Virus record (IMG/VR): IMGVR_UViG_2595698595_000001
Coordinates: 96,001 to 160,000 of that record
Direction: 5' to 3' (one strand)
DNA: 64,000 nucleotides
From: a virus
Lineage: Duplodnaviria > Caudoviricetes
A model generated the notes under the pieces. It did not search any database and was not told the DNA's origin. It saw only the letters and a program-made list of their open reading frames with translations. This document shows, piece by piece, positions 4,248-63,938 of this stretch. The translations under genes and the position numbers were made by a program. Position 1 is the first letter of the stretch, and each line of letters opens with the position of its first letter.

Positions 4248-4631
4248 ATGAAAACATTAGTTCAACTTTTCGAATCTAAAGATTATTCTAAGAACGATTT
4301 AGCTCTTATCGCTAAAGACACTATCGAAAGAATGTCTACAAAACGTTTAACTGATATCGAAGCTAAAATAAATTCGAATAACTCTTTATCTATTTCAGCT
4401 AAATCGGATGGTAAAGCTTTTAGTTTTAGTCTAAGATTTGTAGTTAAAACTAGAACGGTTAGTGATAAAGTTTCAGACTATGAGATTATCGTTATTACAG
4501 AAGGTTCGAATATCAATAGTACTAATTCGTTAAAACAATATAAGAAGTTACATGAAATGATATTCCTGAAATCTACTTTCAAGAATGAAATCACTTCAAC
4601 TGTTATCAAATCACTTCAAGGGAAATTCTAA
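4248..4631 (+). CDS. Putative internal head protein with targeting leader (MKTLVQLFES)
   Basis: Shared N-terminal motif; late operon. Confidence 0.6.
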   Translation: MKTLVQLFESKDYSKNDLALIAKDTIERMSTKRLTDIEAKINSNNSLSISAKSDGKAFSFSLRFVVKTRTVSDKVSDYEIIVITEGSNINSTNSLKQYKKLHEMIFLKSTFKNEITSTVIKSLQGKF

Positions 4632-5029
4632 TGAAAACACTTTCGAAATTATACGAAGCTTTCGTAGAAAAAGAAATCGATACTAATTCTAATACGATAC
4701 ATAGAATAATAGCTGACGCTTTCAGAAGATGTGTATCAGTTGGTGAAATCAAGAGACTTAGAAATCTTGAAAGTTTAGAAATAGAAACTAACGGTAACGA
4801 ACATAAAGGTTTACTAGAATTCGAAGCTACAGTAAATCATGTAGAAAGAAAATTCAAAGCTCTTTATTCAGTAATCGATTCTAACGAAAGGATAAAAATA
4901 TCTATTATCATAAACCTTATAAACGAAGAAGTTTCTAGCATAAACGAAGAATTAGTAATCGAAGGAATTGACTTACAGAATCAAGTTATTCTGTTAGTTG
5001 AAAAATTATTACGTAATATAGAAATATAA
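4631..5029 (+). CDS. Putative internal head protein with leader (MKTLSKLYEA)
   Basis: Shared N-terminal motif. Confidence 0.6.
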   Translation: MKTLSKLYEAFVEKEIDTNSNTIHRIIADAFRRCVSVGEIKRLRNLESLEIETNGNEHKGLLEFEATVNHVERKFKALYSVIDSNERIKISIIINLINEEVSSINEELVIEGIDLQNQVILLVEKLLRNIEI

Positions 5030-5030
5030 A

Positions 5031-5696
5031 ATGAAAACAATATCAAAACTATACGAATCGAGACTTAACGAAAACTTGAATACAGAGTTATCATACTTTG
5101 CTAACGTAACTAAAGTTTCTAAAACATTTTTAGAAACTTTACCAAAAGTACAAAAAATAATAGATTCACATTATCCATCAAGTAAGTCTAAACTAATACT
5201 CGAACCATCTTTCTATACTGATTCGGTGAAAGTTTCTATAGGTAATGACAAATGGGGTTATGGATATTCATATGCTAGCAGTTATACAAAAACCCCTGAT
5301 CAGAATATGTTAGCTTTATGTTCTGAATTGTTTGATCTTAATGCTTTCGATTCTGTTGCTATAAACAATGGTACATTGAATTTATCGATCAGTTTCAATG
5401 ATTCAGCATCGTTACGAAAGAAAACTTTAGATAGTATTAAGAAATCAAAACTTGACGATTCTAAATTGAATTTTATAACACCTAGAAATCGTGATAATGT
5501 TTATCTTTATATTGACAATGTCTGGGTAAGTGCTCATATAATGGAAGAGGGTGGTTCTAAAATAAAATATGTTTTAGATAAACCTGACCCTGTAACTAAA
5601 GAAAGAGTTTTCTATGCAGACATGAAATCGTTTGTTTTTTCTGACCCATTAAAGGTTAAGAATTATGATAATGATTTAATTTTCTGGAAACCTTAA
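5031..5696 (+). CDS. Putative internal head protein with leader (MKTISKLYESRLNEN)
   Basis: Shared N-terminal motif with two LxE sites. Confidence 0.6.
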   Translation: MKTISKLYESRLNENLNTELSYFANVTKVSKTFLETLPKVQKIIDSHYPSSKSKLILEPSFYTDSVKVSIGNDKWGYGYSYASSYTKTPDQNMLALCSELFDLNAFDSVAINNGTLNLSISFNDSASLRKKTLDSIKKSKLDDSKLNFITPRNRDNVYLYIDNVWVSAHIMEEGGSKIKYVLDKPDPVTKERVFYADMKSFVFSDPLKVKNYDNDLIFWKP

Positions 5697-5706
5697 ACAT
5701 CATCAA

Positions 5707-6192
5707 ATGTCAACTCATATAAAGGACTCTCTTAAACCTAGACTAAATTCTAAGTTTAAGCAAGGGTACTTTGAACAAGCTAGAACAACTGTAAACAAGT
5801 ATATAGGAAAACGTCCAATCATATATCGTAGTTCTTACGAATATGATGCCTTCGTTTGGGCTGATACTTCACCTAATGTCGTACATTGGACAACTGAACC
5901 ATTTCCTATAGAATATACTGACATGACTACAGGTAAGAAACATAAATACTGGATAGACTTGGTTGTAAAATTCAAAGACGGAAGTACAGCTCTTATCGAA
6001 ATCAAACCATTAGCTCAAGTACCTAGATCATTAAACGAGGTAAAACTCGATCCTGTAAAACGTAAGAACTTCCAGAAATGGGAAGCTACTAAAGAATTCT
6101 GTAAACGTAATTATGGTTATAAGTTTATCATACTTACAGAAAAATCTTTATTCGCTTTAACAGGATTGTCAAAATATTCAGCACATAGATAA
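5707..6192 (+). CDS. gp4: Head completion nuclease, T4 gp4-like (TnsA-type PD-(D/E)xK)
   Basis: FKQG...IIYRSSYE...W..E...I.Y...H.YWIDL...LIEIKP...KWEA...F.ILTE. Confidence 0.85.
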   Translation: MSTHIKDSLKPRLNSKFKQGYFEQARTTVNKYIGKRPIIYRSSYEYDAFVWADTSPNVVHWTTEPFPIEYTDMTTGKKHKYWIDLVVKFKDGSTALIEIKPLAQVPRSLNEVKLDPVKRKNFQKWEATKEFCKRNYGYKFIILTEKSLFALTGLSKYSAHR

Positions 6193-6204
6193 AACAATAA
6201 ACAT

Positions 6205-7888: not shown

Positions 7889-8508
7889 TGAACAAAATAT
7901 TAAGATACTTCGATGTAGTAAAGGGTCGCTCACAAGGTGACCTTAAATCATGGTCAAAGTTACATGAACAAACTAAGAACTATGATAAGTTCAATACTTT
8001 ACTTGAATCAGGTGAAATCGTTAAAATTCCAAATTCTTACAATTACTGTACTAAGAAACGATTAAATGAAGCAATCTTTCAAGTTCTGAGAGAAGAATGG
8101 TTAAAGTACTTTAGAATTTTGATGCGTGACAAATATCACACTCAGCTTGAACGTGGTACATGGTTATTAAATAGTCTTGGTTCTAGTAGAGAAGACAAGA
8201 TATTCGAAATCAAAATGAATCTTAGAAATATCGAAAAGAAGGTTCAGGATTTAGGAAAAACTATTAGTCCTTACTGTTATCAGAAAGTTCTGAAAGAAAT
8301 TCTAACGAAACTATTTGAAAGAAGATCAGTAGTTAAAGATGATATCAGACATTGGAGGGAAAAACATAATTTTCCTTGTCAATCTATGTTCAACGAACTA
8401 GAACTATCTGAGAGATATATAACAGAACTTTGTCAAACGTTAAAAGAATTGTACAAAACGAAAACAAAACATTTCAAGTATTTCAAAGATAAGTATACAT
8501 ATTTCTAA
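7888..8508 (+). CDS. Hypothetical basic helical protein
   Basis: 206 aa, TAATG coupling to upstream gene. Confidence 0.6.
   Translation: MNKILRYFDVVKGRSQGDLKSWSKLHEQTKNYDKFNTLLESGEIVKIPNSYNYCTKKRLNEAIFQVLREEWLKYFRILMRDKYHTQLERGTWLLNSLGSSREDKIFEIKMNLRNIEKKVQDLGKTISPYCYQKVLKEILTKLFERRSVVKDDIRHWREKHNFPCQSMFNELELSERYITELCQTLKELYKTKTKHFKYFKDKYTYF
8494..8501 (+). promoter_or_regulatory. Late promoter TATACATA
   Basis: 16 nt upstream of the gp2-like gene. Confidence 0.6.
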
Positions 8509-8517
8509 GGATAAACT

Positions 8518-9267
8518 ATGGCTTCACTTAGAGACAGAGTTACTAGAGCTTCTAAATCAATGACTAGTACTTTCAAAGATGTAACAAAATCTATTTCAGA
8601 CTTCTTCGGAAAGTTCAAACGAATATTCCAATCATATGACTTATTCAAGGAAATAAAAAATCATCCTTGGAATGGACCACAGGGTCGTATACAAGCCTAT
8701 GACTGGTATCGTAAATATCGTAAAGATAAAAAGAACTGGCTTAAGGGTCAATTAATGAAACAAGGTCAATTATATATGTTCGATTACGTCGATCCTAAAT
8801 ACAAAGACGTTTTACCTTGGTTCGATGAGAATCCGTTGGTTATTTCATTAGGTCCTGTAAAAACCTCACTAGGTTGGAGAACGATCAACATAAACTTACA
8901 TTTATTACCACCGATTACTAGAAAGATAGTAATGTCAAAGATATTCGATTTCAATAAGAATCGTTATAAAGCTTTGATGGGTGTAAATAATCCTAAAGCT
9001 ATTCCTAGCGTTAATTACAAATCGTTAATACAGCCTTTAGAGCAGTATGGAATAGGTTTCGCAATTCGTATGTACATTCCTGAATTACAAAAGAACATTG
9101 TAGAATTTCAGTTAGAAGAATGGAAAAATGCAATATTCTTAGAATCCAGAAAATTGAACGGAATTACAGCTCCTAAACTTCAACAAGAATGGGAAACTTT
9201 CGTTGAAGAACATAACAAAAAGAAATCGACTAAACAGAAACTAAGAAAAAATTGGTTCGGATCATAA
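8518..9267 (+). CDS. gp2: DNA end protector protein, T4 gp2-like
   Basis: GQLYMFDY.DPKYKDVLPWFDENPLVI...INLHLLPP..R. Confidence 0.85.
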   Translation: MASLRDRVTRASKSMTSTFKDVTKSISDFFGKFKRIFQSYDLFKEIKNHPWNGPQGRIQAYDWYRKYRKDKKNWLKGQLMKQGQLYMFDYVDPKYKDVLPWFDENPLVISLGPVKTSLGWRTININLHLLPPITRKIVMSKIFDFNKNRYKALMGVNNPKAIPSVNYKSLIQPLEQYGIGFAIRMYIPELQKNIVEFQLEEWKNAIFLESRKLNGITAPKLQQEWETFVEEHNKKKSTKQKLRKNWFGS

Positions 9268-10025: not shown

Positions 10026-10032
10026 TACATAT
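10025..10032 (+). promoter_or_regulatory. Late promoter ATACATAT
   Basis: Heads a cluster of five leader-bearing genes. Confidence 0.7.
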
Positions 10033-10050
10033 TTCTAAATATCTTAAATA

Positions 10051-10512
10051 ATGAAATCACTTACAAACTTATACGAAAATAAGCTTAACGAAGCTTCAGG
10101 AACTTTTAGCTCTTTGGAATCTAATATGAATTCTTCTATAGATTCTGTAAAGAATCATATTGATTCGGAATTAAAGGAGCTTTTAGCTAAACAATCTAAA
10201 ATAAAGGATGCTAAATCTAAGACTGCTAAAGCTATTAAAGTAATTGAAAATGTTCTTCCAGAATTTACAGAATTACATGCAACTTATAAGATCATGACAT
10301 TCAATGACAGTATTTGCATAGAATTTACTATTCCTAGTGAAATAATGAATGACAAAACTTCGAATATAAAGAAAGATGTTGTTTATTTCAATAATTTCAT
10401 TAAAGCTAATAAATCGGAACTGGATAAAACTTTTAGTTTTGCTGGTGTAACTAGATATAATTCAGAATTCTCCGGAAATAGCTATAGTGATTTAATACTA
10501 GTTCTTAAATAA
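10051..10512 (+). CDS. Putative internal head protein with leader (MKSLTNLYENKLNEA)
   Basis: Shared N-terminal motif. Confidence 0.6.
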   Translation: MKSLTNLYENKLNEASGTFSSLESNMNSSIDSVKNHIDSELKELLAKQSKIKDAKSKTAKAIKVIENVLPEFTELHATYKIMTFNDSICIEFTIPSEIMNDKTSNIKKDVVYFNNFIKANKSELDKTFSFAGVTRYNSEFSGNSYSDLILVLK

Positions 10513-10520
10513 TTTAAATA

Positions 10521-10796
10521 ATGAAATCACTTACGAAATTATACGAATCTAAACTTAACGAAAGTGAGGAAATCGACAAAGTAAAAATGAAACAGGCTTT
10601 GGTTACTTTTCAGAAGTCTAACGATCTAATAAAACTTGAAAAAGACTTACTAGCACTTAATCCATATAAAAACGGTATACAATACAATGCTTATATTGAC
10701 TGGATTAATGACAATATCAAATGGTATAAGAACGGTGATACTTATGTATTTTCTTTAACAAGCTCCGGATCGGTTCTTAATTCGTTAGACGATTAA
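10521..10796 (+). CDS. Putative internal head protein with leader (MKSLTKLYESKLNES)
   Basis: Shared N-terminal motif. Confidence 0.6.
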   Translation: MKSLTKLYESKLNESEEIDKVKMKQALVTFQKSNDLIKLEKDLLALNPYKNGIQYNAYIDWINDNIKWYKNGDTYVFSLTSSGSVLNSLDD

Positions 10797-10799: not shown

Positions 10800-11426
10800 A
10801 TGAAAACTCTTACTTCCCTACTATTCGAATCTTACAATTCTGACATAAGGAAACTTGAGTTAAAGCTTCAGTCTTTTGGTTATACTGTTCGACATGATAC
10901 AAGTAGACCAAAAGGCTTTGCTTTAGAAATTAGATTACCTAAGGATCAGTTATATGTACCTGAGGATTTAGAAATACTTTCTAAGAACTTGGAAGCTTAT
11001 CCTAATCTTTTAATGATCGATGCTAAAGTCGGGGAAGATAAGAATTACGTAGATTTCATCTTTCCAGTAACAGAAAGATTCGTTGATAAAGTTTATCATG
11101 TAACTTCTAAGAAATGGATAGAATCGATAACTGAAAAAGGTTTATTATGTTCTAGACCTACTGATGCTTCTGATAACATTAAGAAACATGAATCAAAAGA
11201 ATCTTTCAGAGATAGAAAATACAAAGCTGTTTTCGTAATATCGAATTTAGAAGACGCTAAGAAAGTTTCTAAGATGTTCGACTTCGAAGAACCTCAACTT
11301 ATCGAATTAGATACAAAGAATCTTAAATTTTTCGAAGATCCAATGATGCCTGAAGAAATGGATTCATTAGTTCATTTCGATGACATAGAACCAAAAAGAA
11401 TAATTAACATAACTGACATTAAATAA
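10800..11426 (+). CDS. Leader-bearing protein with putative ADP-ribosyltransferase/KptA-like domain
   Basis: MKTLTSLLFES leader; VYHVTSKKWIESITEKGL...AVFV...IEPKRI resembles the ART/KptA fold. Confidence 0.55.
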   Translation: MKTLTSLLFESYNSDIRKLELKLQSFGYTVRHDTSRPKGFALEIRLPKDQLYVPEDLEILSKNLEAYPNLLMIDAKVGEDKNYVDFIFPVTERFVDKVYHVTSKKWIESITEKGLLCSRPTDASDNIKKHESKESFRDRKYKAVFVISNLEDAKKVSKMFDFEEPQLIELDTKNLKFFEDPMMPEEMDSLVHFDDIEPKRIINITDIK

Positions 11427-11428: not shown

Positions 11429-11806
11429 ATGAAAACAATATCAAAATTATACGAAGCTAGTTCGGATTTCCAAATGATAGAATTCGAATCGATTAAAGCT
11501 ATAGAATTAGCTATAGCTAACTATTCAGCCTCGGTTAAGGGCTTACAACAAGAAGTAACAAGCATTAAGAATCATTTATCAAAAATACTTGGAAACAAAG
11601 TATCAGACATTAAAGATCTGAATGCTTCTTTAACTGCTGAAAAAGGTATTACGTACATAGAGGTACAACTTCAAGCTGATAAAGTTGAAAAATTTGGAAT
11701 GGAGGAAAGTAAAGCCTTTTCAAAAGTTTTACAAGCTAAAGGCATTACTAAACATAAAACCCAATTTGTCGGAACTAGTTCAATGTACATTACATTATAT
11801 TTCTAA
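11429..11806 (+). CDS. Putative internal head protein with leader (MKTISKLYEA)
   Basis: Shared N-terminal motif. Confidence 0.6.
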   Translation: MKTISKLYEASSDFQMIEFESIKAIELAIANYSASVKGLQQEVTSIKNHLSKILGNKVSDIKDLNASLTAEKGITYIEVQLQADKVEKFGMEESKAFSKVLQAKGITKHKTQFVGTSSMYITLYF

Positions 11807-11808: not shown

Positions 11809-12180
11809 ATGAAAACTCTATCAAAACTATTCGAAGATCAAATCTTTAACGTTTCTTCAGTTTCTCAGTACTATCGAGAAAATATAGATTTACTGTTACC
11901 AGCTAAAGAAGTTCTTGACGAAAAGGATATTCAAATAGCTAAAGATAGAATTCTGAAAGAAAAAGAAGTTTTACCTAAGGGTCATAAGTATCTTATGATT
12001 AATGAAGCTCAGACATTAATGTTTATGGTTCTAGAACTTCAAGGTTCTAGATATCATGCAGTTCTTACAAGTGATACTGAGAGTACTGTATTTCAGACAT
12101 TAATAAACTGGGAACATGTTGAAGAATATGTCAAAGCTTTAGGATTAGATTTCGATTATTTCAAAGAATCGAAACTGTAA
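11809..12180 (+). CDS. Putative internal head protein with leader (MKTLSKLFED)
   Basis: Shared N-terminal motif. Confidence 0.6.
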   Translation: MKTLSKLFEDQIFNVSSVSQYYRENIDLLLPAKEVLDEKDIQIAKDRILKEKEVLPKGHKYLMINEAQTLMFMVLELQGSRYHAVLTSDTESTVFQTLINWEHVEEYVKALGLDFDYFKESKL

Positions 12181-12295: not shown

Positions 12296-14050
12296 ATGTT
12301 AGGTTACAATAGAAACGCAGGTAGACCCAATTCTGGGAATCTATCAAAGAAATTCAGTAAATTAGGACCGATTATCAAATCGATTGGTAACTTCGGTATC
12401 GTCATAAATAAGAAAGTTCTTGACAAAAAGACTGCTATACCTGAAGACCCAAGATTAGAAGGTGACATTTATTCGATTCTTGATACGATTGGAACTCGTT
12501 CAATGAATCAAACTTCATATCCTCAATATAATCAAAACGATCAAGTACAAAGACAAGCTAGACGTTGGCATTTAATTACAATGTCTAAACATCCAGAACT
12601 TGAAGATATTATTGAAACGTTAACTGATGAAGCTATTGTATATGATAAGAATGCTACTTACTGCTGTTCTGCTATTCTAAATACTTTGATGTTAGACGAA
12701 AAGATAATTAGTTCTAAAGATTCTAAAGACCTTGAAGAATTAGTTACAGAAAAGTTCCCAGCTTTATATAGAATGTTAGGTCTTTATAAATCTGGTGCTA
12801 AATCTTTGATGCAAGAATGGTTAGTTGAAGGTAAGAAAGCTTGGGAGATTGTATACGATTCATTAGATAATCCTAAATCGATTATAGGTTTAGTTCCGAT
12901 AGACCCATTATCATTAATTGAACATTGGGATGAAGATGGTAACAGATGGTGGATTCAGGAACCAAATCTTACTCAACAATCTAGTGCTATGGGTGTTACT
13001 AGAGCTATGGGTGGTCAAAGAACATTACATGACTCACAGGTAATATATTGGGATTGGGACCCAACAGGATTTAAGTTTTCTTATCTTGAAAGACTTTTAA
13101 GAACGTTTAATGTTTACCGAGCTATCGAAAGAATGAAAGTTAACTGGTGGGTTATGAACTCTCAGTTTAGAACTATGATCGTTATTCCAACTCATGGTAA
13201 ATCTAGACAACGCGCTGCTGAGGTATTAGCTGCAGCAATGCAAAGATATCGAGATCATGTTGAATTCTCTGATGAAGATGGAACGGTTAAAGTAAATGGT
13301 TCAGCGAACATTCCAGCGAATAAGGAATATTGGTTAGCTGATACTTCGTCTGGAAAACCTGAAGTTTCTACAGTAGGGGGTGACGGATATGACTTGTCAA
13401 GTGCTGATACTTCATGGTCTAAACGAAATCTGTTAGAACTTTCTAAAGTACCTTTGGATAGATTCGACCCTAGTTCTTCAGAATCATGGAATCTTGACCC
13501 AACATCTTCAAGACGTCAAGAATTGAAATTCGCTAAGTTTGTCCAAACGTTAAGAACTTCAATGTCTGAGATAATGCTAAAACCTCTGATTATTCAAATA
13601 TGTTTAGATCGCCCTAATCTGACAAATAATTACGAATTACTTGATGCGATTACTATAGATTTCTTATCTGAAAACATCTTTACTCAAAAGATCGAAATGG
13701 AAATCATGAAAGAACGTACTGAATTCATTGGTGAAATGATGGACAAGCTTAAACGTGTTGACGCTGACGGTAACGAAAAACCTTTCTTCTCTTTGAAATT
13801 CTTGATGGACAAATACATGATGTTAACTCCTGAAGAACTTGAACAAAATGCGAAAGCTCTTAAAGAAGAGGAAAAGGAAATGGAAGAATTCAGTAGAAAA
13901 CAGAATACAATTTCAGCTGAAATGGAAGCTGAGAAAGCTGAATATACAAAAGAATTCGAAGAAGATGATTCTAAATCTTTATACGAATCTATAAAGGCTA
14001 AAAGAATCAAACGGAAAACAACAAAAGACATTACAAAATACAGAATATAA
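12296..14050 (+). CDS. gp20: Portal protein, T4 gp20-like
   Basis: HPELEDII..LTDEAIV, PIDP, SYLERL...N..R.IE, EYWL....G.PEVST.GG, SKVPLDRF, RQELKFAKFV..LR. Confidence 0.9.
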   Translation: MLGYNRNAGRPNSGNLSKKFSKLGPIIKSIGNFGIVINKKVLDKKTAIPEDPRLEGDIYSILDTIGTRSMNQTSYPQYNQNDQVQRQARRWHLITMSKHPELEDIIETLTDEAIVYDKNATYCCSAILNTLMLDEKIISSKDSKDLEELVTEKFPALYRMLGLYKSGAKSLMQEWLVEGKKAWEIVYDSLDNPKSIIGLVPIDPLSLIEHWDEDGNRWWIQEPNLTQQSSAMGVTRAMGGQRTLHDSQVIYWDWDPTGFKFSYLERLLRTFNVYRAIERMKVNWWVMNSQFRTMIVIPTHGKSRQRAAEVLAAAMQRYRDHVEFSDEDGTVKVNGSANIPANKEYWLADTSSGKPEVSTVGGDGYDLSSADTSWSKRNLLELSKVPLDRFDPSSSESWNLDPTSSRRQELKFAKFVQTLRTSMSEIMLKPLIIQICLDRPNLTNNYELLDAITIDFLSENIFTQKIEMEIMKERTEFIGEMMDKLKRVDADGNEKPFFSLKFLMDKYMMLTPEELEQNAKALKEEEKEMEEFSRKQNTISAEMEAEKAEYTKEFEEDDSKSLYESIKAKRIKRKTTKDITKYRI

Positions 14051-14051: not shown

Positions 14052-14717
14052 ATGCCTCCACATAAAGTAAGATTTTCATTATATCCAGAAAAACGTGATA
14101 TCGCACAAGAATCGTTTAACTGGTTACGAAGACAAAAACATGCAGGATATGATAGAACAGAATTACCACAGATTCCACAAGATAAGGAAGATTTCGTAAT
14201 TGATTTATTAGAACTTAAACCTAGACGTGTATTTGCTAGGGATTTGAAACCTGCACAAACTCAAATCAAGAAACCTAAAGTAATTGATAAGATCGGAACT
14301 AATCAGGATAAACGTAAGTATATAGTTTCTAAAGATGGCTATTTAGTTGATGGACATCATTCATGGGCTTCATTAATTCCAGATAACGATGTAATAACTA
14401 TATATCAAAGTTCTTCGAAAGATATTCACGAAATGGTTCGAATTCTGAAAGATGATTTAGGTTACGGTTCTAAATCGATAAATGAAAACTTTGACGAAAA
14501 TGAAGAACGTTGTGAAGGTGAATACTGTAATGCTACATATCAAAGAATCCTTAAACTGTATCGAAATGTTATGGAAGTTGATAAGAATCGTGCTAAATCG
14601 TTATTTCAGTTCTTAGGAAAGAAATATAACGAATCTATCAAAGATTTCTGTAAACGTTCTTCTGATACAAATTTGGAACGATTAGAAAAAGAACTTAAAA
14701 ACTTATCAAGAAAATAA
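14052..14717 (+). CDS. ParB/Srx-like domain protein
   Basis: LKPAQ...IVSKDGYLVDGHHSWA. Confidence 0.7.
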   Translation: MPPHKVRFSLYPEKRDIAQESFNWLRRQKHAGYDRTELPQIPQDKEDFVIDLLELKPRRVFARDLKPAQTQIKKPKVIDKIGTNQDKRKYIVSKDGYLVDGHHSWASLIPDNDVITIYQSSSKDIHEMVRILKDDLGYGSKSINENFDENEERCEGEYCNATYQRILKLYRNVMEVDKNRAKSLFQFLGKKYNESIKDFCKRSSDTNLERLEKELKNLSRK

Positions 14718-14718: not shown

Positions 14719-14916
14719 ATGAAAACATTAACACAATTATATGAATCTGTAATCGATGATTCGGATAAAGAATTTTTGAAATCGGAATTGAAACATATCG
14801 ATAATCAAATAGATAAGCTTATGAAGTTATCAAAGATATCTGATAAACAACAAGCTTATTGGGATAAGCTAGAGCTTGATAAAAATGAAATTATAGAACT
14901 ATTGAAAACAAAATGA
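14719..14916 (+). CDS. Small coiled-coil protein with leader (MKTLTQLYES)
   Basis: Shared N-terminal motif. Confidence 0.6.
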   Translation: MKTLTQLYESVIDDSDKEFLKSELKHIDNQIDKLMKLSKISDKQQAYWDKLELDKNEIIELLKTK

Positions 14917-15383
14917 AAACGTTAGTTCAACTATTCGAAGACTTATCACTCGATGTATCTAAAGCGATACGTCGAGAACTTGATACAAATTTCAAAGGGT
15001 TTCGTAAACATCAGAATCGTCATGATATCGAAGCTTTAATTGGTGATGCTATGAGAAACTCAGCTTTACCTTTTATAAGACATGCAGCTGAATACGTAAC
15101 TCCTGATAAATTCAAATCTGGTAAGCATATTAATTCTGGATATTGTGTTCAATTCGCTGAGTATATTTTAGATCATGTTCATTCTCGTAACGTTAAGATG
15201 ATGGGTGATGTCGATCATCATGTAATGTTGAAAGACAACGTAACAGGTCTTTATTATGACGCTGAGCATCCAGATGGTATAACTTTAGAAGATTTCCGTA
15301 ATACTACATGGATGAAAAATCCTGACAAAGTTGTACAGTTCTTAAGAAACAAAGAAGTTAAGGAAATTGATTACATGCAATAA
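14913..15383 (+). CDS. Leader-bearing protein with putative transglutaminase/papain-like triad
   Basis: MKTLVQLFED leader; NSGYCVQFA, DHHVML, YYDAE (Cys-His-Asp order). Confidence 0.55.
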   Translation: MKTLVQLFEDLSLDVSKAIRRELDTNFKGFRKHQNRHDIEALIGDAMRNSALPFIRHAAEYVTPDKFKSGKHINSGYCVQFAEYILDHVHSRNVKMMGDVDHHVMLKDNVTGLYYDAEHPDGITLEDFRNTTWMKNPDKVVQFLRNKEVKEIDYMQ

Positions 15384-15407: not shown

Positions 15408-16148
15408 ATGAAAAATATATCCATAATATCAAGTATTGACAAACGTTCAATGCTTTTCGAAGCTGTAAGTGACGGATTAATACCAGTACCTGATGGTATG
15501 ATGCGTGTTTCTGGAGTAATAGCTAAGATGGACGTTATGAATAATAACGGACGTTTTTATACTAAAGAAAACTATACAAAACATATTGATTCTATTCAGG
15601 ATAAAATCGCTACCGGTCTTTATGGAGAAATGGAACATCCTGATAGCTTTAATATCAATTATAATAACGTTTCTCATAAAGTTGAAAAACTTTGGTATGA
15701 TCATGCTACCGATGAAGTCAAAGGTATATTTCTACTTTTAGATAACGAAAAAGGTAAAACTGCTCAAGCTATTGTTAAATCTGGTGGTACTCTTAGATGT
15801 TCTACTAGATGTGCTGGTGATGTAGCGAAAGGTAATGAAGCTCGTATAAGTAAATTCTATACAGTCGATTTAGTCGGTACTCCTGGATTCGATGAAGCTA
15901 AATTATTCTTGATGGAATCTTTAGATTTTACATCTAAATCAAATAGTTCAGATATTAAACTTTTGAATGAAGATGATAACAGTATTGTATATGTTTCAGA
16001 ACTTAAACAAATGCTTTTAGAATCTAAGAAATATGTAACTAACGATTCAGCTTTATTAGAAGCTTTAAATGAAAGAACTAATCTAGTTTCTTCGAAGGAA
16101 TCTAAGAAGCTTTATGAATCTATTAAATCGAAAATACTTAAACGATAA
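15408..16148 (+). CDS. gp21: Prohead core protease, T4 gp21-like
   Basis: N.NGRFY, GEMEHP, VSH, GK...AIV..G...STRCAG, TVDLVGTPGF..A. Confidence 0.9.
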   Translation: MKNISIISSIDKRSMLFEAVSDGLIPVPDGMMRVSGVIAKMDVMNNNGRFYTKENYTKHIDSIQDKIATGLYGEMEHPDSFNINYNNVSHKVEKLWYDHATDEVKGIFLLLDNEKGKTAQAIVKSGGTLRCSTRCAGDVAKGNEARISKFYTVDLVGTPGFDEAKLFLMESLDFTSKSNSSDIKLLNEDDNSIVYVSELKQMLLESKKYVTNDSALLEALNERTNLVSSKESKKLYESIKSKILKR

Positions 16149-16150: not shown

Positions 16151-16984
16151 ATGAAAACATTAACACAATTATATGAAGCTATAGTTATATCTAAAGATTA
16201 TCCTAAATTTGATTCGTCTAATAAAGATATCGAAAAATATCTTCTAAATATTGCAAACGAATTAAAGAAATCTGAAGGTTTTAACAAATATAGAGGGGTT
16301 TACGATTTTAAAAGCAGATATAACTACGGACAAGGAATAATAGATCATACTGTAATACTCGAATGGTCTGCACCATTATCAGAATGTTTTAAATCTTTAG
16401 GTGTATCTAAATCTGAAGCTATATTGATTTCAGATTTAGGTAAGAATGCTGAAAAGCTAACAACTATCAAATTTAAATTACAGGTACATATTCGTGAAAA
16501 AATATCATCTGATCAAACTATCGATAAATTTGAAAACTATTACAGTGGTACTTTAGACGCTACTATTTATAATCATAATTTCAGTAGAATAGTTTCGTAT
16601 ATGTCTGGATATTATTCTGGTGGTTCTGATGATAAGTATACTTACGATAGAACACAAGAAAGCTTTGATAAGTCTGATAGAATTTTCGATTTAATAAATT
16701 TCGTAACTAGTAATATCAACGCTTATAATAAAGAATACAATCCAGTTTTGATATCATCTAACAGTTCTATTCTTAGTAATGAAGCTTCTTCAGTTTATTC
16801 TAGAATATCAAAAAATAAAACTGACAATTTATACGACTTTACGGATTTTATTAAGAAACATGGTGAAGCTAAACTTTTAAATCTATTAAAGAAATCTTCA
16901 ACGTTTAAAGCTTTCTTAGATAAGGATCATTATAAAGATGGTATCTTATCGAAAACTTCTATCTGGTCAGAAACATACGATTAA
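16151..16984 (+). CDS. Putative internal head protein with leader (MKTLTQLYEA)
   Basis: Shared motif; between protease and scaffold. Confidence 0.6.
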   Translation: MKTLTQLYEAIVISKDYPKFDSSNKDIEKYLLNIANELKKSEGFNKYRGVYDFKSRYNYGQGIIDHTVILEWSAPLSECFKSLGVSKSEAILISDLGKNAEKLTTIKFKLQVHIREKISSDQTIDKFENYYSGTLDATIYNHNFSRIVSYMSGYYSGGSDDKYTYDRTQESFDKSDRIFDLINFVTSNINAYNKEYNPVLISSNSSILSNEASSVYSRISKNKTDNLYDFTDFIKKHGEAKLLNLLKKSSTFKAFLDKDHYKDGILSKTSIWSETYD

Positions 16985-16993: not shown

Positions 16994-17305
16994 ATGAAAA
17001 CGATAAATCAATTATACGAAGCTAAGCTTAATGAAGCTTATGGTACAGAACATCTCGAAGATCAAAATGCTGAATTAGGTGCATTAGTTAAAGACTTAAA
17101 GGATGTAAAAGTTGGGAAAACTTACTGCATTGTAGATTTAGGTTTAGAGGAATGGAATTCTGGATATAAACTTAAAGCGATAAAAGGTAATATGTACATC
17201 TTTGACGATTTACTAGGTTCTCCTTTAGATAAAGAAGTTTTCGAATTTACTAGAGGTGACATTTTAGAATTAATATATGACAAAGCTATAGCTTTCGAAA
17301 AATAA
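16994..17305 (+). CDS. Putative internal head protein with leader (MKTINQLYEAKLNEA)
   Basis: Shared motif. Confidence 0.6.
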   Translation: MKTINQLYEAKLNEAYGTEHLEDQNAELGALVKDLKDVKVGKTYCIVDLGLEEWNSGYKLKAIKGNMYIFDDLLGSPLDKEVFEFTRGDILELIYDKAIAFEK

Positions 17306-17312: not shown

Positions 17313-17735
17313 ATGAAAACAATATCAAAATTATACGAAGCTAAATTAAATGAAGCTTCAAACTATGATCCATACGAATGGGGTGAAACTGTAATGAAGG
17401 CTGTTAAATCGTTAGCTTCATCTTTGAAACTTAAAGATATTAAAATCCATGAAGCTCATTCTGATGATGGCGAAGGTTACGGTCATGGTATAATCGATTT
17501 TAAGAAAGATGGTGTACCATATTATATCGATTATCATATAACTCTTGAATTACATCATGGACTAGAATTAGGTGATTTAGAAATCCAATTAGGTGTTTAT
17601 GAAGATTCTGATGAACCATATGCACCAAATGATGACGTTGATAAAACTTTCAAGAAAGTTTCTGGTCAAGACGAACCAAAGGTTATTTCGAAAATGGTAA
17701 CAGATTTCTTGAAATCTACTAAAGTTTTGAAATAA
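17313..17735 (+). CDS. Putative internal head protein with leader (MKTISKLYEAKLNEA)
   Basis: Shared motif. Confidence 0.6.
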   Translation: MKTISKLYEAKLNEASNYDPYEWGETVMKAVKSLASSLKLKDIKIHEAHSDDGEGYGHGIIDFKKDGVPYYIDYHITLELHHGLELGDLEIQLGVYEDSDEPYAPNDDVDKTFKKVSGQDEPKVISKMVTDFLKSTKVLK

Positions 17736-17796: not shown

Positions 17797-18543
17797 ATGT
17801 CTAAAAATAATCTAACAGTTGCTCAAAAAGTAAATGCGCTTGTTGAGTCACATATCAAAACAAAATTGATTCCAGTTTTACAAGAGAATCAAAAACAAAT
17901 GTTTGCGATGATCGATCAACATCTTATGGAGAACTTCGGTCCTGCTGTAGTTGCTTTCATTAAAGGTAAAGGTCAAGCTCTTAACGAATCTCAAAACGAA
18001 GAGATTACAAATTCTTTCCGTAATTTCCTTTTGGAAAATGCTGAAGAGGATGTAGCTGAAGAAGTTAAAGAACTTGAAGATAAACTTGAAGACAAGAAAG
18101 AAGAACTTGAAGATTTGAAACTTGAAGAATCTAAACTTGTTAAGAAAGCTAAAGCTTTAAACGAAGCTAAGGATGAAGCTCACGAAGATGAGGAATTATC
18201 TGAAGAAGAAGAAGAAGAAATCATTGATGAAATCGAACTTCAAGAATCTTTGAATACTAAATCACTTACTAAAGTTCGTCGTAAAATGAAACTTGTTGAA
18301 AGTGAATTGGAAGAAATCGCTGACGAATTACAAGATTTAGGTGCTATGGCTACTGAAGATACTGGAATTCCAGCTGATGAAGTTGAATTATCTGAAGAAG
18401 AATTGGAAGAGCTTGAAGGTGAGGAACTTTATGAAGCTTTGAAAACTCGTGTTGCTAAGAAAAGTAAACGTAATGGTAGTCTTTTAGAATCTATCAAAAA
18501 CGATATCGCTAAAGCAAAACGTCTTGACGCAAAAAAAAAGTAA
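17797..18543 (+). CDS. gp22: Prohead core scaffold protein, gp22-like (short form)
   Basis: Very acidic coiled coil with many LxE(S/A/N) sites; between protease and capsid genes. Confidence 0.75.
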   Translation: MSKNNLTVAQKVNALVESHIKTKLIPVLQENQKQMFAMIDQHLMENFGPAVVAFIKGKGQALNESQNEEITNSFRNFLLENAEEDVAEEVKELEDKLEDKKEELEDLKLEESKLVKKAKALNEAKDEAHEDEELSEEEEEEIIDEIELQESLNTKSLTKVRRKMKLVESELEEIADELQDLGAMATEDTGIPADEVELSEEELEELEGEELYEALKTRVAKKSKRNGSLLESIKNDIAKAKRLDAKKK

Positions 18544-18914: not shown

Positions 18915-20672
18915 ATGTCTTTTAAATATACTAGGATTAATCCTGCACAAGCCCAGAAAAAATGGGGTGCTAAATTAAACGAATCTTTCGAGTCTATCAA
19001 AACTCTTCCAGGTTTTGCTAACAAGATGAATATGATTTCGAAACTTGCTGCTATTAAGGAACTTAATGACGGTGGAGTTAACAAGGGAGAACGTGCTCTT
19101 ATGGAGAACTATCAAATCTCTGGAACTGGTGATATTCTTGGAATGGGTCCATCTACATGGCCTTCTGATCCAGGTACTGCTCCAGGAAATGAAGAAGGTG
19201 CTTGGACTAAACCAACCTACAAAAAAGGTTCTGGTGATGTTCCTTCAATGATCTTCGGATTAGCGATGAACGTTGCTGCTTACACTGTAGGTTTCGATAT
19301 CGTTCACACTATTCCAGTTGATACTCCGACAGCAGCTTTCCAATTCTTGGATTCTATTTACGCTGGTGGTAAACTTAACGAAGCTGGAAATCCTCCTTCT
19401 TACATGAAAGTAAGTTCAGTTAAACTTCGTGCTGGATTCGATTACAGTACTTTGGTTAAAGGTGGTCATGTATTCTTCAAAACTAAAGGAGATGATACTG
19501 CAGTTCATGGTATTTTCATGGGTAAATCGTTCTTCGATGGTGGTTTAATGATCAAACTTGAATCTACTGGTACTATCGCTACTAACGTTTATACTAAAAC
19601 TGATGCTATCTCTGTAGCTGATGTATTTACTGACGCTGGTGTTGAAGTAATTCCTGGTTCTTCTGCTACTGCAGTTGATGGTACTGCTTTAGATATCGAA
19701 GTTGCACAAGCTGAATACGTTGAATCTTTCCGTGAACATGTACAAGGTTTCACTAACAGTGACCAAATTACTCCACGTTCTATGGATAGAGCAACAGGTG
19801 AGCAAGGAACTCGTTCAGTATTGAACTTACGTTTATGGTCAACTTCTTTGGAAATGCGTACAGTTGAAGTACTTGCTGATATCACTAAAACTCAGTTGAA
19901 AGACTTAAGTGCATATGGTATCGATGGTGTTGCTCAGTTGTACAAAGCTTCTCAAAACGAATTGATTCAGTCAATTAACGATGAGATCATAACTGAATTC
20001 ACTCGTTTAGGTGTTACTAACCACGCTCAATTATTCGCAGCTCAAAACTTGAACTTGAACTTATTTATCGCTCCTGCTGGAACAGCTAATAAGCCTTTGA
20101 CTCAGTTTAACTACGGAGAATTCAAAGACGTTCAAGGTGTTGATCGTGCAGCTGAATTTGGTAATATCATAAACGCTGAGAATAACTCTGCAGCAGAAAA
20201 TACTTACACTCGTCAACGTAGAATTTACTCTCGTTTATTAGCCGCTTCAGCTATTATCGGTACAATTTCTCGTTACGGTTCTGGTGATGTTGCGGTAGTT
20301 GGTCCACAAACAGCAGTTGCGTTACAAGATTCTAAATCTTTCACTGCAGTTCCAATGGAAAACAACTTAGGTTCAACAGCTGATTTACATTACATTGGTA
20401 ACGTAAATGGTATCCGTATCTATGTTAACCCTAAATGGTCATGGGATGATAAACGTATATCTGTTGGACGTCAAGGTCAAGACGATCAACCAGGTTTGAA
20501 ATTCTTTGCTTACGATTTAGCTAGCTCTGTAGAGGTTATCGATTCTTCTACTTACGCTCCTAAAATCTGTGTTACTTCACGTTTCGCAGTTCAAGCATGT
20601 GGTTTCCATCCTGAGGCTTCTTACTTAACTTTCGTTGTCAACTCCGATTTCGGTGGTGATACTTGGGTATAA
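18915..20672 (+). CDS. gp23: Major capsid protein, T4 gp23-like
   Basis: KKW..KLNES delta-domain-like start; QLKDLSAYGIDG...NELIQSINDEII; GNVNGIRIYVNP; PKI...SRFAV; strong codon bias. Confidence 0.9.
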   Translation: MSFKYTRINPAQAQKKWGAKLNESFESIKTLPGFANKMNMISKLAAIKELNDGGVNKGERALMENYQISGTGDILGMGPSTWPSDPGTAPGNEEGAWTKPTYKKGSGDVPSMIFGLAMNVAAYTVGFDIVHTIPVDTPTAAFQFLDSIYAGGKLNEAGNPPSYMKVSSVKLRAGFDYSTLVKGGHVFFKTKGDDTAVHGIFMGKSFFDGGLMIKLESTGTIATNVYTKTDAISVADVFTDAGVEVIPGSSATAVDGTALDIEVAQAEYVESFREHVQGFTNSDQITPRSMDRATGEQGTRSVLNLRLWSTSLEMRTVEVLADITKTQLKDLSAYGIDGVAQLYKASQNELIQSINDEIITEFTRLGVTNHAQLFAAQNLNLNLFIAPAGTANKPLTQFNYGEFKDVQGVDRAAEFGNIINAENNSAAENTYTRQRRIYSRLLAASAIIGTISRYGSGDVAVVGPQTAVALQDSKSFTAVPMENNLGSTADLHYIGNVNGIRIYVNPKWSWDDKRISVGRQGQDDQPGLKFFAYDLASSVEVIDSSTYAPKICVTSRFAVQACGFHPEASYLTFVVNSDFGGDTWV

Positions 20673-24267: not shown

Positions 24268-24269
24268 TA

Positions 24270-24294: not shown

Positions 24295-24537
24295 ATGAAA
24301 ACGTTAACACAATTATACGAAGCTGAAGAAATTCCAGCAAAAAGAAAATTCTTTGTAAGTCAAAGAGGTGTTGCTGACTTTAAGAAAGATTTGAAGATGA
24401 ACGGTATGAAATATGAAGAACTTAAAGGTAACAATTTCATACTTGATAATTCAAATCCTGGTAAGGTAAACATGGCTGTAAAAATGGTAAGGGAACGTGT
24501 AGGTTCTCAAAATATCAAAGAAAAATTCGATTTTTAA
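24295..24537 (+). CDS. Putative internal head protein with leader (MKTLTQLYEA)
   Basis: Shared motif. Confidence 0.6.
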   Translation: MKTLTQLYEAEEIPAKRKFFVSQRGVADFKKDLKMNGMKYEELKGNNFILDNSNPGKVNMAVKMVRERVGSQNIKEKFDF

Positions 24538-24883: not shown

Positions 24884-25069
24884 ATGAAAACATTAAAGTC
24901 AATGTTCGAGTCAATCATCAAGGATGATATGTCTCCGATATATGATAAAGCTAAAGACAAATCATATAACAAGAAAACAAATGACAATTCTGAAATGTCA
25001 CCAACTTATGACAAAGTTAAAGCTGGTAAGAACAAATCAGACGATTACGAAATGTCACCAACTAAATAA
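24884..25069 (+). CDS. Small leader-bearing protein with internal MSP(I/T)YDK repeats
   Basis: MKTLKSMFES; three repeat units. Confidence 0.55.
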   Translation: MKTLKSMFESIIKDDMSPIYDKAKDKSYNKKTNDNSEMSPTYDKVKAGKNKSDDYEMSPTK

Positions 25070-50166: not shown

Positions 50167-50715
50167 ATGAAATCAATATCAGAACTATACGAAGCTTTCG
50201 TAGAATTAAAACATATTAACAAAGACAAAGAATTTATAGCAGGTAAGGATGTAAAAATCGATTACAAATCTTTACCTAAGCATGCTCAAAAATTCTTTGA
50301 TGCTTTGTATTCGGGATTCGAACAATTAGGTAACAAGATAACATTCGAAGCTAATGAATCTAAATTAAACTTGAATAATGCTAGTTATAATCTTGTAAGA
50401 GTTTCAAAACCTGGATCAGACTATGGAACTATTCTTACTAGAGAAGAAGTTCTAGAACATAACGCTAAAAAGGTTGTACATTTGACTTCAGGATTTTACA
50501 TTCATTCAGCCTCAAATGATAAACCTATTTATATTACGTTATTCCTTAACATGGGTCCTAAAGGTGACGCTTCATTCAAGCTTAGCTTTAACATGGATTC
50601 AACTAAAGATTTGAAATATGCTCCAGGAATGGATGGCTTAAAATTAGCGACATCTGTAGTTAAGGCTATGATATCAAAGAACAAAGCTTATCAGAATAGT
50701 TTCTTCAATATGTAA
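50167..50715 (+). CDS. Putative internal head protein with leader (MKSISELYEA)
   Basis: Shared motif plus own late promoter. Confidence 0.6.
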   Translation: MKSISELYEAFVELKHINKDKEFIAGKDVKIDYKSLPKHAQKFFDALYSGFEQLGNKITFEANESKLNLNNASYNLVRVSKPGSDYGTILTREEVLEHNAKKVVHLTSGFYIHSASNDKPIYITLFLNMGPKGDASFKLSFNMDSTKDLKYAPGMDGLKLATSVVKAMISKNKAYQNSFFNM

Positions 50716-62186: not shown

Positions 62187-62262
62187 GAAACTATTATTAC
62201 AGTGTAGGTATTATACATATCTACTAATAATTAATTAGGGAGACATTTGATCTTGTCTCCCT
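62186..62262 (+). promoter_or_regulatory. Overlapping early and late promoter motifs plus leader hairpin before lysin-like gene
   Basis: GGAAAC-N17-TATTAT, TATACATA 62212-62219, AGGGAGACA/TGTCTCCCT 62237-62262. Confidence 0.55.
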
Positions 62263-62287
62263 TCATGGTTTCACTAAAATAAAAATA

Positions 62288-62923
62288 ATGTTTAGTTCAA
62301 AAAATGAAAAATCAGATCAGAAACACCCAATCTTAAAATTAATCGAATCTATAAAGAAATTCTTTGATTTCGATACAGTACTGTCAATTATTATAATGGT
62401 ATTCATACTATGGTTACTATTAGCTTCTAAAGGTTCAGCAAAGGCTGAAATGCTGTCAACAGATTCTGATATTGTTGACGTAAATCTCCCAGAAAAATTC
62501 AATGAAAAATCTACTTCAAGTAAAATCAAGAACAAAGAGGATTTGTATGTTTACATGAAGAAAGCTGGAATTAAGTTTCCTGAGCTTGTATGGTCTCAAG
62601 CTATGATGGAATCTGCTTGGATGAATTCAGCAGTTTTTAATCGTTCTAATAATCTTTTTGGAATGAAGAAATCTGGAAAACGTGACCATTTACAAATACA
62701 TAAACGTAACGATTCTTATTCACATTTCGAAACAATCAAGAAGTGTGTATTAGATTACAAGTTACATCAAGAACAAGTTCTTAAAATCGAAAACATTAAA
62801 AACGAATCTCAATATATGAGAAGGTTAATCAAAACTGGTTATTGTCCTGATGAAGGATATGCTAGAAAGATATTAGCTATTCGTAAGAATACAGATTTTA
62901 ACGAATTGAAAAAATCTAGTTAG
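62288..62923 (+). CDS. Membrane-anchored GH73 glucosaminidase/lysozyme-like peptidoglycan hydrolase
   Basis: TM segment; QAMMESA, NNLFGMK, Y..F......DY, GYC....Y. Confidence 0.75.
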   Translation: MFSSKNEKSDQKHPILKLIESIKKFFDFDTVLSIIIMVFILWLLLASKGSAKAEMLSTDSDIVDVNLPEKFNEKSTSSKIKNKEDLYVYMKKAGIKFPELVWSQAMMESAWMNSAVFNRSNNLFGMKKSGKRDHLQIHKRNDSYSHFETIKKCVLDYKLHQEQVLKIENIKNESQYMRRLIKTGYCPDEGYARKILAIRKNTDFNELKKSS

Positions 62924-62954
62924 TAATACATATTCAAATAAAAAATATACTATC

Positions 62955-63284
62955 ATGACCGAACAAGAAATTAATATTCGTATAGCTGAAGATAACAAGG
63001 TTATCAAACTTCAGGAAGAAACTGTAGAAACTCCAATCGTAAAGTATTACGAAGTTGTTAAAACTTCATGTAGTTCTGAGATTCTATTTTATGGTAATAA
63101 TCCAAAACTTAAAGAAGGTGATTTATTCGAATGTTCGAATTCTTTACAATCTAACGTGTTAGGTGTAAGTAAATGGTTACTACCGAATCATCTTGAATTT
63201 TCTGGATTGAATTCTATAGCTTTAGAATGCTGTCAAGAATTGACAGAAATGGAATACAAACAAAAATTAGCAAGACGTGATTAA
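62955..63284 (+). CDS. Hypothetical protein
   Basis: AATACATA at 62925-62932. Confidence 0.55.
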   Translation: MTEQEINIRIAEDNKVIKLQEETVETPIVKYYEVVKTSCSSEILFYGNNPKLKEGDLFECSNSLQSNVLGVSKWLLPNHLEFSGLNSIALECCQELTEMEYKQKLARRD

Positions 63285-63561
63285 ATCTTTTGAAGAACGT
63301 AAATCAGAATTTCTTCGAAATTTCAAAGATTTTAGATTACCTAATGAAGCTAATTACGATACTAAGATTCGATATGTTGTAGCTTACGAATTTCTAAACA
63401 ACATTATGATAAACCGTAATGTTAGTTTCGATGGTAATGTATTCAAACTATCTAACGGTATGATAGTAAACAAAATAATAGCATTACGAAGGGCTAAACC
63501 TTACGAACCTAAGAACGCTTTTCATATTACTAACGAAATTCTAAAATCTGGAAAACTATAA
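63277..63561 (+). CDS. Hypothetical basic protein
   Basis: 94 aa, GTG start. Confidence 0.5.
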   Translation: MIKSFEERKSEFLRNFKDFRLPNEANYDTKIRYVVAYEFLNNIMINRNVSFDGNVFKLSNGMIVNKIIALRRAKPYEPKNAFHITNEILKSGKL

Positions 63562-63938
63562 TGAAAACTTTAACAAAACTTTTTGAAAGTTCTATATATG
63601 TTGTTTCTTCAAAAGAAGCTTCTGAACAATATACCATGATTTCCGGTAACGAGTATGGTACGAAAAAGGGTATTGATATTTACGTAAATGACGTTTTAGT
63701 ATGTAAGACTAGAAAATATAAGATGTACATAGCTAAAGGCTACAGTCAAGTACTTAAAACTGTATCAGATACTGATTATGATCATAATAATTTAGCTAAA
63801 GCTTTGAACTCAGACGTCAATGTTGTACAAAAATACTTCAGGTCTGATTTTCATAATACTAGAGTATGGAATCCTGGTACTTATACAACAGTTAAAAATT
63901 TCAAAGAAAAGCTAGAATTCTTTTTAAAGCATAATTAG
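63561..63938 (+). CDS. Putative internal head protein with leader (MKTLTKLFES)
   Basis: Shared motif; late operon. Confidence 0.6.
   Translation: MKTLTKLFESSIYVVSSKEASEQYTMISGNEYGTKKGIDIYVNDVLVCKTRKYKMYIAKGYSQVLKTVSDTDYDHNNLAKALNSDVNVVQKYFRSDFHNTRVWNPGTYTTVKNFKEKLEFFLKHN

Follow-up and report, generated by a model that had tools for sequence, protein, structure and literature searches.

The capsid targeting sequence (CTS) of bacteriophage T4 needs no more than ten residues, of which residues 4 and 7 serve targeting and residues 8 and 10 serve processing, according to the truncation and suppressor work described in the available text of PMC9026906. That text and the available portion of PMC12991175 state that the T4 protease gp21 cleaves after the Glu of an I/L-x-E site, and the former describes Alt as an ADP-ribosyltransferase (ART) that is packaged via a propeptide and injected. 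The internal proteins (IPs) of T-even phages form a very varied group with only the CTS in common (PMC3012670), and the accessible passages of PMC2839356 put the number of IP variants known from T4-type phages at more than 30. The three IPs of T4 itself took decades to assign and two are still unexplained, as stated in the same portion of PMC9026906. Giant phages of the phiKZ type (phiKZ, 201phi2-1, SPN3US) have many head-internal proteins that are cut after x-x-E by a related prohead protease, and their propeptides are thought to direct proteins into the prohead (PMC5694885, in the sections available). Here, we analyze a 64,000-nucleotide stretch (the window) of the IMG/VR virus record IMGVR_UViG_2595698595_000001, in which 17 open reading frames (ORFs) begin with a common peptide of nine or ten residues, which we call the tag.

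The record is a single genome of 219,372 bp, rated 100% complete by CheckV; the window comprises its bases 96001 to 160000 and has a GC content of 31%. We propose that the tag is this phage's version of the T4 CTS, borne by many unrelated proteins that are loaded into the head and clipped by the protease, and we give this reading a probability of roughly 0.7. So read, the finding is a large new instance of the known T4 mechanism, because diverse internal proteins that share only a CTS are already known for T-even phages.

We scanned the window at every ATG, in all six frames, for the pattern MK[TS][LI]xx(L)[LM][YF]E. Exactly 17 starts fit it, all on the plus strand and in ORFs of 61 to 277 amino acids (aa), and their coordinates are the same 17 that a preliminary description of this DNA had listed. 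According to the ORF list, each tagged ATG is the earliest possible start downstream of the preceding stop. The tagged ORFs, which we name by their first coordinate, are given below; a slash follows the Glu after which cleavage would occur, and WATACATA is a promoter-like motif treated further on.

4248..4631, plus strand: tagged ORF, 127 aa; MKTLVQLFE/S; no Pfam or PHROGs family
4631..5029, plus strand: tagged ORF, 132 aa; MKTLSKLYE/A; sub-threshold Pfam matches only
5031..5696, plus strand: tagged ORF, 221 aa; MKTISKLYE/SRLNE/N, a double site
10051..10512, plus strand: tagged ORF, 153 aa; MKSLTNLYE/NKLNE/A; WATACATA 27 nt upstream
10521..10796, plus strand: tagged ORF, 91 aa; MKSLTKLYE/SKLNE/S
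10800..11426, plus strand: tagged ORF, 208 aa; MKTLTSLLFE/S, a 10-residue tag; predicted ADP-ribosyltransferase-superfamily fold (KptA/Tpt1/DarT-like)
11429..11806, plus strand: tagged ORF, 125 aa; MKTISKLYE/A
11809..12180, plus strand: tagged ORF, 123 aa; MKTLSKLFE/D
14719..14916, plus strand: tagged ORF, 65 aa; MKTLTQLYE/S; in the position of T4 gp67 (80 aa) and similar in size
14913..15383, plus strand: tagged ORF, 156 aa; MKTLVQLFE/D; in the position of T4 gp68 (141 aa) and similar in size
16151..16984, plus strand: tagged ORF, 277 aa; MKTLTQLYE/A
16994..17305, plus strand: tagged ORF, 103 aa; MKTINQLYE/AKLNE/A
17313..17735, plus strand: tagged ORF, 140 aa; MKTISKLYE/AKLNE/A
24295..24537, plus strand: tagged ORF, 80 aa; MKTLTQLYE/A; WATACATA 26 nt upstream
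24884..25069, plus strand: tagged ORF, 61 aa; MKTLKSMFE/S
50167..50715, plus strand: tagged ORF, 182 aa; MKSISELYE/A; two overlapping WATACATA motifs 21 and 28 nt upstream
63561..63938, plus strand: tagged ORF, 125 aa; MKTLTKLFE/S; third gene behind the WATACATA at 62925

When the pattern was freed from the start codon (K[TS][LI]..[LM][YF]E), it occurred 17 times in the six-frame translation of the window. Sixteen of these occurrences are tagged N termini, and the remaining one is an internal chance match on the minus strand at 43324; none is internal on the coding strand. The tag of ORF 10800 reads MKTLTSLLFE, with the one extra residue that had been noticed earlier, so it lies outside the start-free pattern. 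We rejected chance or an ORF-calling artefact as the origin of the tags, which the six-frame scan and the ORF list place at ORF starts. When extended to the whole genome, the motif scan gave 19 strict matches, to which MKGLHNLYEAKLNEA at genome position 200549 adds a near match; of the resulting 20 tagged ORFs, the window holds 17. A second motif, (K/R)LNE(A/S/N), follows the tag in five window ORFs (5031, 10051, 10521, 16994, and 17313), the number originally reported; genome-wide, a second (K/R)LNE site is present in 7 of the 20 tagged proteins, with a partial VSNE in 1 more. A 175-aa ORF at 46714 to 47241 (plus strand) starts MYLSNIYESFVDS, which has the look of a degenerate tag (hydrophobic-x-x-IYE/S) without the MKT start, and it scores only 8.7 bits against the tag profile.

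In the tag alignment, M1, K2, and E9 never vary, L7 is kept in at least 90% of the sequences, and either L or I occupies position 4 throughout; as a consensus, the window tags give MKTLTQLYE followed by A or S. The conserved residues are encoded by synonymous codons (Leu by TTA, CTT, and CTA; Thr by ACA, ACT, and ACG; Tyr by TAC and TAT), and the DNA upstream of the tagged ORFs is mostly unrelated, with the exception of 10051, 10521, and 24295. Because synonymous codons vary and the upstream DNA is mostly unrelated, we conclude that selection acts on the tag peptide rather than on the DNA. These observations speak against the idea that the common start of these ORFs reflects the nucleic acid or expression and has no sorting role, as with an A/T-rich initiation leader or a cassette by which recombination carries promoters and gene starts around. 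Such an idea can draw on the A/T-rich coding sequence that opens with ATG AAA, on the similar 5' untranslated stretch with a promoter-like motif in front of the three exceptional ORFs, and on recombination at conserved elements beside T-even IP genes, which the available text of PMC2839356 reports with reference to Repoila 1994. However, the peptide pattern made up by the conserved positions closes precisely with the protease site, the pattern is never internal on the coding strand, the bodies of the proteins avoid the site, and the leaders vary among phages while the hydrophobic-x-E design is kept. We consider this explanation quite improbable.

We also considered that the leader is a recognition peptide for some other process, that is, for a modifying enzyme, as in ribosomally synthesized and post-translationally modified peptides (RiPPs), for export, or for sorting to another compartment. 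The tag has no hydrophobic span and no signal-peptide character, and it fits both the T4 CTS and the cleavage motif of the S77 peptidase family to which the phage's prohead protease belongs. A leader recognized by a radical-SAM enzyme was rejected: the 100%-complete genome has zero radical-SAM domains, whereas the control was positive in 14 of 14 genomes. A recognition peptide of this kind is the least probable of the explanations that we weighed.

The resemblance to T4 begins with the tag itself. In the T4 record NC_000866, IPII and IPIII start MKTYQEFIAE/A and IPI starts MKTFKEF. The window tag is a close match to the T4 CTS: both open with MKT, are hydrophobic at positions 4 and 7, and end in (L/I)-x-E before a small residue, and the tag of ORF 10800 has ten residues, as does the T4 CTS. 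Both phages encode a protease of the gp21 family along with a gp20 portal and a gp23 capsid protein. The two systems differ in number, with 20 tagged genes in one genome here and three IPs plus Alt in T4, and in the leader, which has nine residues here and ten in T4 and is extended by the second (K/R)LNE site in 7 of 20 proteins here. The T4 IPs are basic, whereas the bodies here are not uniformly basic and have no similarity to the T4 IPs. Differences from the phiKZ-like phages are larger in form: according to the sections of PMC5694885 available, their propeptides are mostly 80 to 130 residues long with no common short tag, their cleavage motif is (A/S/G)-x-E, and several of their inner-body proteins are paralogous, whereas here the leaders are a uniform 9 to 14 residues, the motif is L-x-E, and the bodies are non-homologous.

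To compare the bodies, which we defined as residue 17 onward, we ran all-against-all blastp on those of the 20 tagged proteins and of the untagged 46714 ORF. No pair matched at an E value of <0.1 (the best was 0.17), and no tagged body matched any other genome ORF of at least 50 aa at an E value of <0.01. We therefore rejected a paralogue family, and the earlier statement that the bodies are unrelated holds. None of the 20 tagged proteins scored above the Pfam cut-off; the best score, 25.2 bits against a cut-off of 26.3, was for a phosphoribosyltransferase (PRTase) domain in the protein encoded at genome position 90664. In PHROGs, 2 of the 20 had weak matches, in families whose function is unknown or of another kind, and no head or internal-protein family was matched. 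The product of ORF 16151 matched only itself in 5.8 billion proteins and had no Atlas lead, and ORF 14913 had Atlas matches to YunG, Peptidase_C93, and transglutaminase-like clusters (scores of 0.89 to 0.94), which we treat as a lead only. Nearly all 20 tagged proteins are ORFans. The predicted mature bodies range from 6 to 38 kDa and have isoelectric points (pI) of 4.6 to 9.7. The tagged 268-aa protein at genome 90664 to 91470, outside the window, has a C-terminal phosphoribosyltransferase motif (Pfam Pribosyltran, below the cut-off), which would be an unexpected enzyme type for head cargo.

Five of the tagged ORFs are interleaved with the portal, protease, scaffold candidate, and capsid genes, an arrangement that had been described for the first three of these. 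The genes of this head operon and the motifs that precede the tagged runs are as follows.

12296..14050, plus strand: portal protein (T4 gp20 family); phrog_213, E 1e-92; Pfam Portal_T4, 296 bits; WATACATA 32 nt upstream
14052..14717, plus strand: basic protein, 221 aa, between the portal gene and the first tagged gene of the head operon; phrog_2859 (unknown function), E 9e-40 only
15408..16148, plus strand: prohead protease (T4 gp21 family); phrog_207, E 6e-44; Pfam Peptidase_S77, 39.9 bits (cut-off 27)
17797..18543, plus strand: scaffold (gp22-like) candidate, 248 aa, pI 4.6, by position and composition; no Pfam or PHROGs family
18915..20672, plus strand: major capsid protein (gp23 family), 585 aa; propeptide with AKLNE23/S and ALME64/N
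4077..4084, plus strand: WATACATA promoter-like motif, heading the run 4103-4248-4631-5031
10024, 12264, 15387, 24269, 50139/50146, and 62925: equivalent WATACATA motifs, heading the other runs

The genome has exactly one Peptidase_S77 gene, the one at 15408, and its product matches T4 gp21 by blastp with an E value of 2e-8. Sites of the L-x-E type are concentrated in the proteins expected to meet such a protease. The scaffold candidate contains 11 L.E[ASNDG] sites in 248 aa, the top density among the genome's ORFs. The protease itself contains 6, for a density rank of fourth in the genome; they are LFE18/A and five L-x-E sites within the C-terminal 80 residues. The capsid propeptide has AKLNE23/S, which is the same as the tag's second motif, and ALME64/N. 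For Sphingomonas phage PAU, N-terminal sequencing showed that the capsid protein is shortened from 585 to 520 residues, with a mature mass of 56.2 kDa (PMC5646251, Table 1), and a cut after E64 of the window capsid protein would leave 521 residues and 56.08 kDa. Judged by these sequences, the published PAU capsid cut is the LME64/N site or lies within one residue of it.

The tagged bodies, by comparison, contain a single L.E[ASNDG] site in 2,801 residues (n = 20), against 5.2 ± 2.3 in composition-preserving shuffles; 3.1% of 2,000 shuffles had one site or none. At the rate of the 237 other ORFs, 8.6 sites would be expected (Poisson P = 0.0018). This depletion is supportive of the proposed mechanism, as it is expected of proteins that survive in a prohead alongside the S77 protease. 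Two ORFs outside the window, at genome 6180 (135 aa) and 88586 (418 aa), have 5 and 7 L.E[ASNDG] sites and are among the densest ORFs; going by these counts, the protease may act on their products too, as additional head-core substrates. The S77 domain of relatives lies in longer ORFs, of about 650 aa in two IMG/VR loci (L137/G005 and L138/G002), 527 aa in phage pT24, and 1,207 aa in phage MA9V-2, which are apparently protease-scaffold fusions. The window protease is a separate 246-aa gene, and three tagged genes stand between it and the scaffold candidate.

The position of the tagged genes within this block raises the question of whether all tagged proteins build the prohead core or help to assemble it, as T4 gp67 and gp68 do, and are cleaved and then mostly expelled or kept as peptides, with no delivered effectors among them. 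Besides the five tagged genes in the portal-protease-scaffold-capsid block, this alternative has in its favor that ORFs 14719 and 14913 occupy the gp67 and gp68 positions with similar sizes, that T4 gp67 and gp68 also begin with L-x-E-type sites, and that several of the small bodies appear helical or charged. However, blastp found no similarity between the products of 14719 and 14913 and T4 gp67 and gp68, and 15 of the 20 tagged genes are outside the head operon, in at least five other places (the tagged genes occupy at least seven places in the genome in all, head operon included). The depletion of cleavage sites in the bodies means that these should come through intact, in contrast to the scaffold candidate with its 11 sites. 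One body has a predicted ART-superfamily fold, and the other leads are peptidase-like and PRTase-like. That all tagged proteins are core parts is unlikely, in our judgment, though less so than the two explanations above; some of them, 14719 and 14913 for example, may belong to the head core instead of being injected effectors.

The ART-fold assignment concerns ORF 10800. Among 1.84 billion representative proteins, we found 18 metagenomic homologues of its product and, as a marginal match, a protein of 1,440 aa. A single-sequence model was useless, with a predicted local distance difference test (pLDDT) score of 39.7, and was replaced by an AlphaFold2 (AF2) model based on the 19-sequence alignment, with a pLDDT of 86.5. 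The top Foldseek match of this model was KptA/Tpt1 (E 3e-4, probability 1.00, template modeling [TM] score 0.34 to 0.40), followed by DarT1 and the A chains of the pertussis and cholera toxins. A profile of the family searched against Protein Data Bank (PDB) sequences matched DarT1 (E 1.8e-4) and KptA (E 2.8e-4) over about 40 to 75 residues. Pfam matches of the family were all below the cut-off (DUF7002 in 5 of 19, PTS_2-RNA in 3 of 19, and PARP in 1 of 19), and tblastn with two family queries found no match among GenBank phages. Residues H100, Y141, and D180 are invariant in the family alignment and are candidate catalytic residues. Taken together, the model and its Foldseek and PDB-profile matches place the product in the ADP-ribosyltransferase superfamily by predicted fold, which would make it a protein of the same kind as T4 Alt.

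The 10800 family allowed us to follow one body across phages. All 18 homologues have an N-terminal leader with hydrophobic-x-E (or Asn-Glu after a hydrophobic pair), in other variants than the window tag; examples are MRRLISMLFES (on a body that is 59% identical), MKTLTQQLLES, MKHIKTFGEFLYEG, MKNLQTFNEFLNES, and MRAKFINES. The family is encoded in eight IMG/VR loci. In six of the eight, one leader occurs on unrelated ORFs, with 2 to 12 such ORFs per locus; in the other two (L128 and L130), we found no leader-sharing ORFs. Locus L129 has the leader MKHIKLFEQFINE on three ORFs, L132 and L133 have 11 and 12 leader-sharing ORFs within 10 kb, and arrays with a MKHI.TFE.F.NE leader are also present among the IMG/VR loci. 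As in the window, synonymous codons vary in these arrays and upstream regions are mostly unrelated, and blastp among 14 leader-bearing bodies of L132 found no pair with an E value of <0.01. A 109-kb IMG/VR fragment (38% complete) has about 19 leader-bearing ORFs of 206. In MA9V-2 (about 215 of 218.5 kb scanned), about eight ORFs start MK.F..F(I/V)NE(A/S), and the capsid propeptide has WSEFINEA, the counterpart of WGAKLNES here. Since the leader is uniform within a phage, varies between phages, and echoes the phage's own capsid cleavage site, it behaves as an address-plus-cleavage label. By sequence, the tag changes with the phage and not with the body, which fits the portable tag that the preliminary description had suggested. 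A second leader-tagged ORF of L132, at 8149 to 8601 (150 aa), has a body that begins ...EVYHGTNSIMADDILKNG, with an ART-like H-G-T motif; the L132 array may contain two ART-type cargos.

With respect to expression, the tagged genes had been assigned to operons headed by a late motif. The first part of this claim stands: all 17 tagged ORFs have WATACATA 21 to 28 nt upstream (10051, 24295, and 50167, the last with a motif of its own) or follow, in a tight run whose gaps do not exceed 9 nt, a gene that is preceded by the motif. On the plus strand of the window, WATACATA occurs 12 to 55 nt ahead of many start codons, those of the genes for portal, protease, scaffold candidate, and capsid protein included. 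The motif is enriched, with 34 occurrences observed and 14.3 ± 3.6 expected, and none of 100 shuffles reached 34. The ORFs 10051, 10521, and 24295 have a similar promoter-plus-untranslated stretch (taatacata...cttaaatatcttaaa) at 10024 to 10050, 10494 to 10520, and 24269 to 24294, which suggests that a promoter-leader cassette was duplicated or exchanged.

By capsid protein, the closest GenBank phages, at about 36.5% identity, are pT24, PTm1, and PTm5 of Tenacibaculum, and the next closest are the Chryseobacterium phages MA9V-1 and MA9V-2 (about 31% identity); the nearest named relatives by this protein have Bacteroidota hosts. In the available text of the MA9V-1 paper, Sphingomonas phage PAU is given as the closest relative of the MA9V-1 group (PMC10537231). 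Capsid relatives at 76 to 82% identity exist in other assemblies. GenBank phages showed no megablast match to the head block, in searches from which own-genome records may be absent, and the capsid protein searched against IMG/VR found no relative. The window also encodes a gp2-like DNA end protector and a gp4-like head completion protein. The basic protein at 14052 to 14717 aligns to the middle of the 740-position phrog_2859 profile and contains a DGHHS stretch that could be read as ParB-like.

We envision the following course of events under the T4-like reading. The twenty unrelated proteins would be produced together with the head genes, and the leader would dock them on the scaffolding core of the assembling prohead, with the hydrophobic tag residues 4 and 7 as the counterparts of the T4 targeting positions. 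After the shell closes around the docked proteins, the single gp21-type protease would cut after the Glu of L-x-E and free mature proteins of 6 to 38 kDa in the head. Many of these would exit with the DNA at infection, at least one of them an ADP-ribosyltransferase-fold enzyme analogous to T4 Alt, and a few tagged proteins, above all in the portal-protease-scaffold operon, would possibly be core parts. A clippable leader of the T4 type was already proposed in the preliminary description, and the likeness to the CTS, the S77 protease, the distribution of L-x-E sites, and the ART-fold cargo all support it. An anti-defence role of the tagged proteins, also proposed there, is conjecture.

Several points weigh against the T4-like reading. 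Docking, cleavage of the tagged proteins, presence in the virion, and ejection are steps that we infer, ejection by analogy with T4, and a search of the literature available to us found no virion proteome of this phage. The capsid data are carried over from PAU via equal length (585 aa) and matching relatives only, with which our record is consistent, and the reported 520 residues differ by one from the 521 predicted after E64. The motif used for site depletion was chosen after the tags had been seen, and for this reason the depletion test is supportive and not decisive. With the wider motif [LIM].E[ASNDG] the depletion is weaker: the bodies have 7 sites against 11.2 ± 3.2 in shuffles, 11% of which had 7 or fewer, and against 15.4 expected at the background rate (P = 0.014). 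The bodies mix acidic and basic proteins across their pI range of 4.6 to 9.7, unlike the basic T4 IPs. Among the IMG/VR records with leader arrays, the S77 protease was found in only 2 of 5, all of them fragments of 13 to 41% completeness. A search of 5.8 billion proteins with the tag profile, at E values up to 10, returned 12 matches, all from the phage's own genome; this search scored only the 8,000 candidates sharing most words and is weak evidence. A degenerate tag-DNA pattern searched against IMG/VR was uninformative, giving single chance-level matches per contig among the 80 listed of at least 117 stretches. Finally, WATACATA precedes non-structural genes too, such as the exonuclease gene at 22987 and those at 25864, 30251, and 31404. 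Because of this, the "late" status of the motif is a reading of position, and WATACATA may be a general phage promoter element that is not strictly late.

The idea of a much larger set of tagged proteins than in T4 is borne out by the repertoire of 20, while its novelty is partial: diverse T-even IPs that share a CTS are already in print (PMC3012670; PMC2839356, in its available passages), and uncultured relatives carry similar numbers (about 19 in one 109-kb fragment). Our search of the available literature found no description of a CTS repertoire of about 20 proteins in one genome or in a jumbo phage of this group, and none of phage-specific leader-variant arrays in uncultured relatives.

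Tentatively, and with somewhat less than even odds, we extend these results to the group. Jumbo T4-like phages of Bacteroidota-type hosts could run a general, sequence-addressable cargo system in which each phage has its own leader variant, co-varying with its capsid and scaffold cleavage sites, that labels at least 20 unrelated proteins (ART-fold and peptidase-like enzymes included) for head loading, trimming, and injection. If this is true, the injected proteome of an uncultured phage would be readable from an over-represented N-terminal leader, and foreign proteins would be loadable by adding the leader. The comparison suggests a rule for recognizing packaged proteins in metagenomic phages, namely, the same body with different leaders across phages and unrelated bodies with the same leader within a phage, and it points to a short tag usable for loading proteins into large capsids. 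The record is consistent with the cultured phage PAU, which has a known host, so the list of tagged proteins would be directly testable. If these proteins are loaded and injected, that list would be one of first-wave effectors that act before phage gene expression, and such effectors would be prime candidates for anti-defence and host-takeover functions.

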